Below, in pieces: positions 60,427 through 63,205 of a stretch of 64,000 nucleotides of DNA. The notes beneath the pieces are model-generated. The model saw only the letters and a list, made by a program, of their open reading frames with translations. It was not told the origin of the DNA and did no database searches. How positions within the stretch are numbered: the stretch's first letter is position 1; each line of letters begins with the position of its first letter. The DNA is from an uncultured Gemmatimonadaceae bacterium (lineage in GTDB: Bacteria; Gemmatimonadota; Gemmatimonadetes; Gemmatimonadales; Gemmatimonadaceae), in assembly GCA_963716745.1 (NCBI GenBank), contig OY970320.1:1888001-1952000 (forward strand), in the 5' to 3' direction. A program made the position numbers and the translations under genes.

Positions 60427-60544
60427 GGTGAGTCTGAATATCACCTGGAGACGAACGGCCGGATAGAGGGCCGGCGGCCGCCGGCGCGCGAGGACGCCGT
60501 CCCCCTGTCCCCGCCTCGCCGCCGCCGCCATCTTGCCCTATCTC

Positions 60545-61582
60545 ATGCGTATCACACTCCTACTCGGCGGCGCCTCGGCGGAGCGCGATGTCTCGCTCGC
60601 ATCGGGGCTTCGCATCGCTCAAGCGCTACGCGAGCGGTCGCACGCCGTGACGCTCGTCGATCCCGCGAGCGGAGTGATCACGCCCAAGCAGGAAGCCGCG
60701 ATGCGGAGTGCCGGCGTGCTGCATCCGGCGCCGCCATCGCTCGAGTCGCTGCGCACCTTCCGCCAGGGCGCGCTGCTCCCATCGCTCGGGACGCTGGCCG
60801 AAGTGCGCGATGCGGAGGTCGTGTTCCTCGGACTGCATGGTGGCGAGGGAGAGGATGGCACGCTCCAGGCGATGCTCGACCTCGCCCGCATTCGGTACAC
60901 GGGCAGCGGACATCTCGGCAGCGCGATCGCGATGGACAAGGACCTCTCGAAGAAACTCTTTCGCGCGGCCGGTGTCGGAACTGCCGACTGGATGATGACT
61001 GGGCGGTATGCGGGCGCGCCGCCGGACGGCGCGTCCGTTACGAGAACGTTGGGCATGCCGGTGGTGGTGAAGCCGTCGAAGCAGGGGTCGACGGTGGGCC
61101 TGTCGGTGGTGAAGGATCCGTCGGGCCTCGACGCTGCGGTGGCCGAAGCCGCGCAGTATGATGATGAAGTGATGATCGAGAAGTTCGTGCCAGGCCGCGA
61201 ACTGACGGTGGCGATCCTGGGTTCGGAAGCGCTCCCCGTGGGAGAGATCATCCCGAAGCACGAGCTGTATGATTATGAATGCAAGTACACCGCCGGCATG
61301 GCGGTCGAGGAGTTCCCCGCGCGGTTGCCGGCGGCGATCGCGGCCGAAGCGCAACGTCAGGCGCTGGTGGCGTTCCGGGCGCTCAAGCTTGACGGCTACG
61401 CCCGCATCGACTTCCGTTTGACAGCGGGCGGCGAGCTCTTCTGTTTGGAGGCGAACACGTTGCCGGGAATGACGGAGTTCAGTCTGGTGCCGCAAGCCGC
61501 GGCGGCGGCGGGGATCGAGTTCGGCGCGCTGTGCGAACGGATCGTGCAGCTCGCGCTGTCGCAGTCACATCGGGAGGCATGA
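60545..61582 (+). CDS. ddl: D-alanine-D-alanine ligase
   Basis: GGASAERDVSL, LHGGEGEDG, GSTVG, YDYECKY, EANTLPGMT. Confidence 0.96.
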   Translation: MRITLLLGGASAERDVSLASGLRIAQALRERSHAVTLVDPASGVITPKQEAAMRSAGVLHPAPPSLESLRTFRQGALLPSLGTLAEVRDAEVVFLGLHGGEGEDGTLQAMLDLARIRYTGSGHLGSAIAMDKDLSKKLFRAAGVGTADWMMTGRYAGAPPDGASVTRTLGMPVVVKPSKQGSTVGLSVVKDPSGLDAAVAEAAQYDDEVMIEKFVPGRELTVAILGSEALPVGEIIPKHELYDYECKYTAGMAVEEFPARLPAAIAAEAQRQALVAFRALKLDGYARIDFRLTAGGELFCLEANTLPGMTEFSLVPQAAAAAGIEFGALCERIVQLALSQSHREA

Positions 61583-62241
61583 TGGCACGAAGCACCGGAC
61601 CGACGGCGGCGATCGCGGGGATCACACCCGGCGTCCAGGGGCAGGGCGTGTGGACCGGGCGGCGGCAGCTCTTCGTGCGCTTCGCCGGCGAGGCCGAGAC
61701 GGCGGTGCTCTACAACGGGGAGATGCTCGCGAAGCAGGTGGATCGCGCCGTCGGACATACCGCGCTTCATTCGATCGCGCTCGCCGGGCGCGATCCACTG
61801 GGCAGTGGGCCGCTCATCGCCGATGCGTTCGCGCGGTGGAAATCCAGTCTCCCGGTGATGCTCGACTGTGACGGACAGCGTCCCGACGATCTGGCGCCGG
61901 TGCTGGGGTCGCTCGCGATGGTGCAGGTGACATTCGAATTCGGCGATGCGCCGGCGGTCGCCGAGCGCGCGCTCACGTCGCTGCGTCACGCGGCCGCCGC
62001 GAAGGTGGGGCATGCGCTGGTGCTCGCGCCGCGCGATGCGACGAGCGACGGGCAGATCCTGCGGCTGGTGGAGCAGGCCCACGGCGCGGTGCCGGGCATG
62101 CAGATCGTGCTCCATCCCGCGCCGTCGGGTGACAAACCGCCGCTCGATCGCCGCTATGCCACGCTCATGGACCAGGCGATGGCGATCCATCGCGATATCA
62201 CGTTCACGATGCGCGTGCCCGGGCCCGTCGGGGTGCGGTAG
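61579..62241 (+). CDS. QueE-like protein lacking the radical-SAM cysteine motif
   Basis: VQGQG.WTG...FVRFAG followed directly by EAETA; GRDPL in place of GGEPL. Confidence 0.7.
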   Translation: MMARSTGPTAAIAGITPGVQGQGVWTGRRQLFVRFAGEAETAVLYNGEMLAKQVDRAVGHTALHSIALAGRDPLGSGPLIADAFARWKSSLPVMLDCDGQRPDDLAPVLGSLAMVQVTFEFGDAPAVAERALTSLRHAAAAKVGHALVLAPRDATSDGQILRLVEQAHGAVPGMQIVLHPAPSGDKPPLDRRYATLMDQAMAIHRDITFTMRVPGPVGVR

Positions 62242-62253
62242 CGGAGCGCGACG

Positions 62254-63160
62254 ATGGACTTCACGAGCACTGAGGAGCGGCTGCCGCCGCCGATGACACC
62301 GGTCGTGCGGGCGATCATCGCGCTGAACGTTGCGGTGTTCTTCCTTCAGCTCGGATTGGTGGGCGACCCCGACATGTTCCGCGCGCTCGCGTGGCACAGC
62401 GGCGGTGAGCCGTGGACGATCATCACGTACAGCTTCGTGCACGGCGGCATTCTGGCACCTCGTGTCGAACCTCTGGCTGCTGTTCGTGTTCGGTCCGCGC
62501 GTGGAGCAGGCGTTCGGCGCGGCGCGATTCACCGCGTACTATCTCTGGTGCGCGGTGGGTGGCTGGCTCGCGCACGTGATCTTCGTGCCGCAGGGCGGTT
62601 ATCTCCTGGGAGCCTCGGCGGCGATCCTCGGCGTGTTGCTCGCGTATGCGATGCGCTGGCCCGACGATGAGGTCGCGATCTTCCCGTTCATGGTGACGGT
62701 GAAAGTGCGGTGGCTGGTCGCGTTCATGGCGGTGATCAACCTGCTCTTCGGCATCAGCACGGCGAACGGCGCGGCGGGGATCGCGTACTTCGCGCACCTG
62801 GGCGGACTCGTCGCCGGCTACATCTTCCTCTACGCTGCCGCGGCGCCCGGACTCGACCGCATGCGCCAGCGCGTGGCGAGCGTGCCCGATGAACCGGACG
62901 AACCGCCGCGCGCCATCCCCCGCTCGCCGACGCGCACGCGCGAGCGCGTCTCGGAGGCCGACGATGCGGTGGCGCGCAGCAACGCCGCGATCGCGCAGCC
63001 GCCGGCGCGTTCCGTGCCGCTCGCGACGCGCGTGGGCCGGCGCAAGACCGAAGAGCTAGATCTCGTGCTCGACAAGATCTCCCGTCTGGGCATCGACAGC
63101 CTGACGGCGGATGAGCGCTCGCTGCTCGTGGAAATGTCCAAGCAGCTGCGCGACCGCTGA
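62254..63160 (+). CDS. Rhomboid intramembrane serine protease with a C-terminal LDKI domain (frameshift near 62445)
   Basis: H...WHLVSN, GASAA, AHLGG; C-terminus LDLVLDKISRLGIDSLTADE. Confidence 0.9.
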
Positions 63161-63170
63161 CGATTCCGGG

Positions 63171-63205
63171 AAAGTAAGAGCCCCCCGGGGAGATCCCCGG
63201 GGGGC
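63171..63205 (-). terminator. Intrinsic terminator facing the minus strand
   Basis: gccccccgggg-atct-ccccggggggc followed by tcttacttt on the minus strand. Confidence 0.75.

Follow-up and report, generated by a model that had tools for sequence, protein, structure and literature searches.

We describe a gene, here called X, in a stretch of 64,000 nucleotides (nt) from an uncultured soil Gemmatimonadaceae bacterium (the window, to which all positions refer unless another contig is named). X occupies 61579-62241 on the plus strand, encodes 220 amino acids (aa), and is followed here through its translation, homologs, profile alignments, fold and substitution rates. It lies between ddl, which encodes D-alanine--D-alanine ligase (Ddl), and a gene for a rhomboid intramembrane protease. 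The product is a homolog of QueE, an enzyme of the radical S-adenosylmethionine (SAM) type, in which the loop that should carry the [4Fe-4S] cluster is gone. Our tentative explanation, held with somewhat less than even confidence and drawn from conservation and a modelled fold, is that X may have a rebuilt, non-radical, putative ligand-binding or catalytic pocket that operates alongside Ddl.

Homology to QueE and loss of the cluster

The similarity of X to QueE is too weak for curated models and becomes significant only with profiles and structure. No Pfam family matched X at E <= 1, and the NCBIfam scan gave a single match, TIGR04508, at an E-value of 0.22 and 11.3 bits against a cut-off of 240, covering residues 17-37 only. 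A PDB sequence search with the X profile returned nothing meaningful (best a methyltransferase, E 0.17), and precomputed PF04055 marks were present on 2 of the 120 listed relatives. When phmmer was run against 1.8 billion representatives, the X family came first and was followed by QueE-like radical-SAM proteins at E 1e-7 to 1e-3. These QueE-like matches, which we call set A2, are 233-297 aa long and fall below the equivalog cut-offs by NCBIfam; their CxxxCxxC, GGEP, ETNG, QP and PQxH motifs are all invariant, and their profile matches B. subtilis QueE (5tgs) with an E-value of 8e-22. Alignment of the X family to A2 with hhalign gave a probability of 99.8 % and E-values of 1.6e-28 to 2.8e-29 over 201-205 columns, and the A2 hidden Markov model (HMM) matches X directly in relatives at E ~2e-16.

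The fold leads to the same place. The AlphaFold2 (AF2) model of X, with a predicted local distance difference test score (pLDDT) of 79 and a predicted template modelling score of 0.79, has the partial (beta/alpha)6 TIM-barrel core of the radical SAM superfamily (PF04055). Compared with 48,161 chains by VIA-align, it is closest to B. subtilis QueE (BsQueE; Z 16.5, 202 residues aligned, root-mean-square deviation 3.7), followed by PFL-AE (Z 16.4), NifB (14.2), E. coli QueE (EcQueE; 13.9) and BmQueE (13.7), and the top 29 rows, from Z 16.5 to 10.4, are radical-SAM-type entries without exception. Foldseek likewise placed radical-SAM cores throughout its top matches. A search of the ESM Atlas returned X's own clusters first and then radical-SAM/QueE clusters, and when radical-SAM families were excluded from it no alternative family appeared, with scores of at most 0.82. 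By three independent lines (phmmer, hhalign and fold) X is a QueE/radical-SAM homolog, and the HMM and structure comparison proposed in the first-pass annotation of this DNA has returned a QueE-like partial TIM barrel. The best reading of its origin is descent from a CxxxCxxC-type, B. subtilis-like QueE radical-SAM enzyme.

That annotation had described the gene as a full-length frame that keeps the QueE N-terminal signature and loses the cluster loop, and this description holds: the frame is open throughout, VQGQGVWTGRRQLFVRFAG is present, EAETAVLY follows it directly and CxxxCxxC is missing. The QueE-type N-terminal hairpin and strand beta1 correspond to residues 18-37 (61630-61689, plus strand), GVQGQGVWTGRRQLFVRFAG, as located by blastp, hhalign and conservation. 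At the position that follows, hhalign shows the cluster loop and an insert of about 25 aa to be cleanly excised, with the loop EAETA in their place (residues 38-42, 61690-61704, plus strand). We counted motifs in 121 proteins, namely the query and the 120 listed of 1017 matches. CxxxCxxC occurs in 0 of the 121, the minimum cysteine count is 0, and the cluster motif of radical-SAM enzymes after beta1 is absent; [G/A/S]EAETA occurs in 121 of 121, so all share the deletion. Nor is any cysteine invariant in 30 X-family sequences reaching down to 36 % identity.

Further motifs have changed along the barrel. A GGE-type motif after beta2 serves SAM binding in radical-SAM enzymes. At the position of GGEP, X has GRDP (residues 70-73, 61786-61797, plus strand, within AGRDPL at 69-74), and by hhalign columns and motif counts the GGE motif is missing from the family, in which 116 of the 121 fit the local pattern, among them GRDP in 87, GRDA in 19 and GGDP in 1. 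The replacement of ETNG by DCDG (residues 96-99, 61864-61875, plus strand, within LDCDGQ at 95-100) is likewise as first described, and by hhalign columns and conservation is part of a change from LETNG to L(D/E)xDG. QP after beta6 has become HP (residues 179-180, 62113-62118, plus strand), which hhalign places there and which is found in 117 of the 121. The D.K motif of beta4 is lost, and PQxH aligns to MRVP.

In a blastp alignment with the genome's own QueE, X Q20 corresponds to QueE Q13 and X R34 to QueE R27, both kept in at least 90 % of sequences, and the equivalent of E15 is X position 22, which is Q here and varies within the family. In EcQueE/BmQueE numbering Q13, E15 and R27 are given as substrate-binding residues in the cited excerpts of PMC11142719, and R27 as the carboxylate-binding arginine in those of PMC5347944. 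T41 of EAETA is invariant, yet hhalign does not align it to the DT of QueE (CDT).

Because the cluster ligands are absent and at least three SAM-contact motifs are altered, radical chemistry is excluded for X as judged from its sequence. The suggestion in the first-pass annotation that catalysis was lost stands to this extent, but the label of pseudo-enzyme is not borne out, since new invariant polar residues occupy active-site positions. Neither QueE nor activase is a fitting annotation for X, which fails on the cluster motif, on the GGE motif and on the model thresholds; the genomic association with queC/queD is also missing, X lying between ddl and the rhomboid gene at all loci examined. 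Members of the family are currently annotated as 'hypothetical protein' or 'organic radical activating enzyme', and the latter label is wrong. The family is new and has no Pfam or NCBIfam model; within the library searched, no paper described a QueE-like family without the cluster or a Gemmatimonadota ddl-rhomboid operon.

The separate, intact queE that the first-pass annotation proposed to look for exists in this genome. It has a Cx14CxxC motif, scores 348 bits against a cut-off of 240, and adjoins queC, away from X. Among 71 family genomes, one of them (G320) unpublished, canonical QueE passes the cut-off in 62, with or without X, and X is a paralog of QueE and not its replacement. X and the resident QueE align with an hhalign probability of 28 % and an E-value of 6e-4; we had considered X as a recent duplicate of this Cx14CxxC protein, and rejected it on that low probability. 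A cluster-bearing A2-type ortholog was found in none of 201 genomes of the phylum; the best matches, at about 79 bits, are apparently resident QueEs.

These results bear on the possibility that X is still part of 7-deazapurine or pterin metabolism and binds 6-carboxytetrahydropterin (CPH4), 7-carboxy-7-deazaguanine (CDG), preQ0 or a pterin through its QueE lid, as a carrier, sensor or non-radical enzyme with no tie to the cell wall. The lid is the best-conserved QueE-like part of X, and Q20 and R34 match Q13 and the carboxylate-binding R27 of the excerpts cited above. However, position 22 is variable, the PQxH histidine is lost, X stands beside que genes in 0 of 88 loci examined while the resident queC-queE is elsewhere, and the 62 genomes with canonical QueE have it irrespective of X. 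We consider this role very unlikely.

The X family and its operon

Homologs of X number 1017 at E <= 1e-3. Their length is 213-229 aa in 116 of the 120 listed, the other four being 181 aa, 183 aa or partly covered. Across 30 sequences reaching to 36 % identity, A10, G23, G27, Q30, F35, A36, T41, A42, H64, S65, G70, L74, D157 and R192 are invariant. At least 90 % of the same 30 keep, among others, Q20, W25, R28, R29, R34, E38, E40, R56, D72, D98, G99, R101 and Q116, as well as H145, H179, D190, H204, D206 and R220. The ratio of nonsynonymous to synonymous substitution rates (dN/dS, by Nei-Gojobori) was taken for 16 pairs, which are not independent of one another and in which dS goes up to about 0.9. 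Its median is 0.09 for X (range 0.03-0.33), far below 1, and 0.12 for ddl (range 0.07-0.19). Purifying selection on X is strong, and the gene is real and not decaying.

A decaying queE copy or an assembly artefact would be the simplest alternative account, and this assembly does contain indel errors, with the rhomboid gene and alr both split (see below). It is refuted for X by a frame that is open over its full length, the 1017 homologs with their matching length, the dN/dS of about 0.09 and the [G/A/S]EAETA loop in 121 of 121 proteins, and we give it practically no weight.

The junctions of X were correctly described before. Its ATG at 61579 overlaps the ddl stop codon TGA (61580-61582) as ATGA, and 12 nt separate its stop codon TAG (62239-62241) from the rhomboid ATG at 62254. 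For the proposed ribosome-binding site, a Shine-Dalgarno-like GGGAGG can be read directly inside the end of ddl (61572-61577, plus strand), only 1 nt ahead of the ATG at 61579 and 4 nt ahead of an in-frame ATG at 61582. Most relatives start with a single M that aligns to the ATG at 61582. Given this spacing and this alignment, the true start may be 61582, for a protein of 219 aa. At the other end, residues 207-220 (62197-62238) form a conserved tail, R.P.P.G.R, whose last residue is Arg in most family members. The C-terminal tail of QueE reaches the active site.

Gene order around X was compared at 80 loci kept from 216 relatives. Upstream of X, ddl is found in 79 of 80, and the rhomboid gene downstream in 77 of 80; the four misses are loci with no room left. 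The order ddl-X-rhomboid also holds in 8 of 8 further and more divergent loci (42-49 % identity), so the synteny anticipated by the first-pass annotation is conserved at every locus with enough flank. Of the findings which that annotation said would refute it, none was obtained. Of 73 scorable loci, 50 have the ddl stop overlapping the X start by 4 nt and 59 by 1-8 nt; the 4-nt overlap persists among them to about 46 % identity, and the gene order to 42 %. The spacer between X and the rhomboid gene runs from -4 to 238 nt.

The X family is confined to Gemmatimonadaceae. A search of 231 genomes belonging to 11 further families of the phylum gave no X, and the public X loci are labelled Gemmatimonadaceae. 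Two loci, L054 and L056, lie on contigs binned as Planctomycetales and Omnitrophota, with a ddl-X-rhomboid region nearly identical to that of a metagenome-assembled genome labelled Gemmatimonas (L053); they are probably mis-binned contigs. Genome G216 has a weak X-like match (E 3.8e-4), but this falls in an off-frame rich in arginine and was rejected as spurious.

In family genomes that lack X, the rhomboid gene directly follows ddl in 5 of 5 examined (L090-L094, from G067, G103, G036, G072 and G216), and the ddl-rhomboid pair is conserved independently of X. A quick, midpoint-rooted Ddl tree, from which the fifth X-less row was dropped for an internal stop, places the other four X-less genomes in one clade (Shimodaira-Hasegawa-like approximate likelihood ratio test support 93). 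This clade is nested among X-bearing lineages, which weakly favours a loss of X over a late gain.

X could also be a passenger in the operon, a constrained protein with a function unrelated to Ddl or the rhomboid protease whose place was merely inherited within one family. The presence of X in a single family gives the synteny a limited evolutionary depth, and the ddl-rhomboid pair pre-exists X or survives without it. An overlap of 4 nt that persists to about 46 % identity and an order that persists to 42 % are, on the other side, more than simple adjacency needs. We hold this account to be unlikely.

What the barrel may do

When conservation is placed on the AF2 secondary structure, the conserved polar residues fall in the N-terminal lid (Q20, W25, R28, R29 and Q30), on strand beta1 (R34), and after the strands: E38/E40/T41 after beta1, D72 after beta2, D98/R101 after beta3, D157 after beta5 and H179 after beta6. 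These positions are the sites at which QueE holds its cluster, SAM, Mg and substrate, and many of the conserved polar residues are new relative to the QueE-like ancestors. Since new invariant polar residues stand at active-site positions on top of the barrel, we favour a rebuilt pocket over a dead site.

In the mechanism we have in mind, the barrel has kept its QueE-type N-terminal lid and has lost the [4Fe-4S] loop together with most motifs for SAM binding. The rebuilt pocket would be made up of EAETA, D72, D98, R101, D157 and H179, where the strands end on their C-terminal side, with R28, R29 and R34 on the lid and strand beta1. It would bind a small charged ligand, possibly with a divalent metal held by carboxylates, which would make X a non-radical enzyme or else a subunit that senses a ligand, its production tied to that of Ddl by translational coupling. 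The coupling to Ddl suggests a role in or beside the metabolism of D-Ala-D-Ala and peptidoglycan precursors. Homology, fold, the missing cysteines, purifying selection, synteny and coupling are established here; that the pocket works, what kind of ligand it takes and that it is tied to Ddl we infer. In its most specific form, the proposal is that a radical-SAM barrel became either a non-radical enzyme, of metallo- or acid/base type, or a ligand-gated subunit, that EAETA, D72, D98 and H179 occupy the former [4Fe-4S]/SAM site, and that the protein works with Ddl on D-Ala-D-Ala or another peptidoglycan precursor; stated with this much detail it is quite unlikely to be right. If it were, Gemmatimonadaceae would possess a new activity of their own linked to the cell wall. 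The tight translational coupling to Ddl, in a soil lineage that is widespread, offers a testable lead to a step or control point in peptidoglycan-precursor metabolism.

Several observations weigh against a rebuilt pocket that serves Ddl. The pocket is assembled from conserved residues mapped to secondary-structure elements and not from clustering in three dimensions, and its EAETA loop is modelled at a pLDDT below 50. The substrate-binding histidine of PQxH is lost. We also considered the ET of EAETA as the equivalent of the Mg-binding DT of QueE, and rejected this because hhalign does not align the two. Within its own family X was detected in 32 of 69 sampled genomes (a count that includes the spurious G216), and with ddl and the rhomboid gene paired in 5 of 5 genomes without it, X is dispensable for the pair and the gene order could be historical. 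Finally, alr is present in the genome, so X fills no obvious gap in D-Ala supply; the idea that X replaces alanine racemase was dropped because of this gene, split though it is.

Another account makes X a true pseudoenzyme that acts purely by protein-protein contact, as a subunit that would regulate or stabilise Ddl, or the rhomboid protease through its cytoplasmic tail, in stoichiometric amount and without binding a ligand itself. The invariant synteny, the ATGA overlap that 50 of 73 loci share with ddl and the strictly conserved C-terminal ...P.P.G.R tail are consistent with such a partner. Yet related genera have the pair of Ddl and rhomboid and no X, most of the conserved residues are charged and stand at active-site-type positions, not in one obvious stretch of surface, and there are no fused forms of X among 8000 scored longer candidates, which is weak evidence. 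We rate a contact-only role as rather unlikely.

The first-pass annotation had proposed something different, namely that X lost catalysis and kept a non-enzymatic role in cell division or the envelope, by analogy with E. coli QueE. As a rival, this makes X a catalytically dead QueE paralog that retains a moonlighting role as septation or envelope inhibitor or regulator. The loss of the cluster and the location beside ddl and the rhomboid gene are in its favour, as is the finding, in passages of PMC11142719, that E. coli QueE blocks septation independently of catalysis. The same passages state that this block depends on C31, on C35 and on the E45-W67 insert next to the cluster, and that Salmonella and Klebsiella QueE are active and B. 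subtilis and P. aeruginosa QueE are not, so that only enterobacterial proteins have the activity. In X the C31/C35/E45-W67 region is deleted, its closest cluster-bearing kin are of the B. subtilis type, and the resident QueE is only remotely similar (probability 28 %). There is also no divisome gene in the operon, as checked over the proteins of the locus and its upstream neighbours. Since X is without the determinant region and derives from a B. subtilis-like lineage, the analogy gives no support to a division role, which we regard as highly improbable, and the case is a warning against transferring the moonlighting story of E. coli QueE to distant homologs. As for the wider cell-wall link claimed for X, gene order is the single line of evidence that points to it.

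Flanking genes and closest known systems

The operon consists of three genes in one orientation. The first, ddl (60545-61582, plus strand), matches Dala_Dala_lig_C at 4.7e-55 and Dala_Dala_lig_N at 4.5e-21 in Pfam and is the genome's top Dala_Dala_lig_C match. Its reading frame opens at a TTG at 60533 in the frame listing, and the likely start is the ATG at 60545, which is residue 5 of the TTG-start frame and where similarity to relatives begins; the first-pass annotation has the same start coordinate. The genes 5' of ddl are divergent and encode a TonB_C protein, a PALP+CBS cystathionine-beta-synthase-like protein and an M50-like peptidase. Outside the window, at G000:C1:2348604-2350228, three adjoining minus-strand pieces (L098, L099 and L101) match Dala_Dala_lig_C at 94, 55 and 51 bits and may be a second ATP-grasp ligase, fragmented or multi-domain.

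The third gene (62254-63160, plus strand) encodes the rhomboid intramembrane protease (PF01694, 1.9e-23) with a C-terminal DUF6576 (PF20216, 2.4e-8). DNA alignment with L004 and L005 shows one extra T, at about 62450, which breaks the gene into 62254-62451 and 62450-63160; positions 62445-62455 read GGCATTCTGG here and GGCATCTGG in both references, of which L004 is the closer, being 96 % identical to X. The extra T is absent from contigs of two soil runs from two different studies, and dN/dS of the rhomboid gene against L004 is 0.11, with no relaxation. Outside the window, alr (TIGR00492; G000:C1:79339-80386, L095/L096) is also in two pieces in different frames, which suggests an assembly indel there too. 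Given the two metagenome contigs without the T and the split alr, an assembly indel, not pseudogenisation, most likely explains the rhomboid break. The assembly is a single contig with a completeness of 89.8 %. In another genome an X ortholog (L107, G040:C2:920749-921400) runs in two overlapping frames, covering residues 4-66 and 59-220, as either a broken copy or an assembly indel. Directly 3' of the rhomboid stop, a terminator-like scan found a GC-rich hairpin with an 11-bp stem (63180-63205), a probable operon end; the scan assigned it to the minus strand, where it has a T-rich tail, and the palindrome can be read on both strands.

Set beside known systems, X shares a homologous scaffold with the E. 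coli QueE septation inhibitor, whose function is independent of catalysis, but lacks the C31, C35 and E45-W67 region, and the activity is limited to enterobacteria in the cited passages of PMC11142719. The fold match to PFL-AE (3c8f) and other COG0602-type activases is tied with that to QueE (Z 16.4; Foldseek E 1.9e-5). Unlike them, X has no cluster and no glycyl-radical partner in its genome context, and the sequence profiles point to QueE-like proteins, not activases.

A radical-SAM fold that persists without the canonical motif is also represented by TIGR04347, 'pseudo-SAM/SPASM protein', a cysteine-less, SPASM-type member of the superfamily from haloarchaea. It belongs to a different branch from X and is compared with it here at the level of the superfamily.

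The closest system is QueE of the CxxxCxxC or B. subtilis type, including the A2 proteins. With these X shares the (beta/alpha)6 partial TIM barrel, the length and the order of elements, as well as the xQGxG...FVRFxG hairpin with beta1, and the HS..G.(D/E)PL and L(D/E)x.G motifs at the same places. It differs in having no cluster cysteines, no insert of about 25 aa and no que neighbours, and in scoring below every QueE model. X is, on its sequence and predicted fold, a cluster-less radical-SAM barrel. It is the cluster that defines the radical-SAM superfamily, and in the large and strongly constrained X family the cluster has been discarded, the barrel kept, and a new invariant motif placed at the same spot, which makes this family a clean natural case of scaffold re-use.

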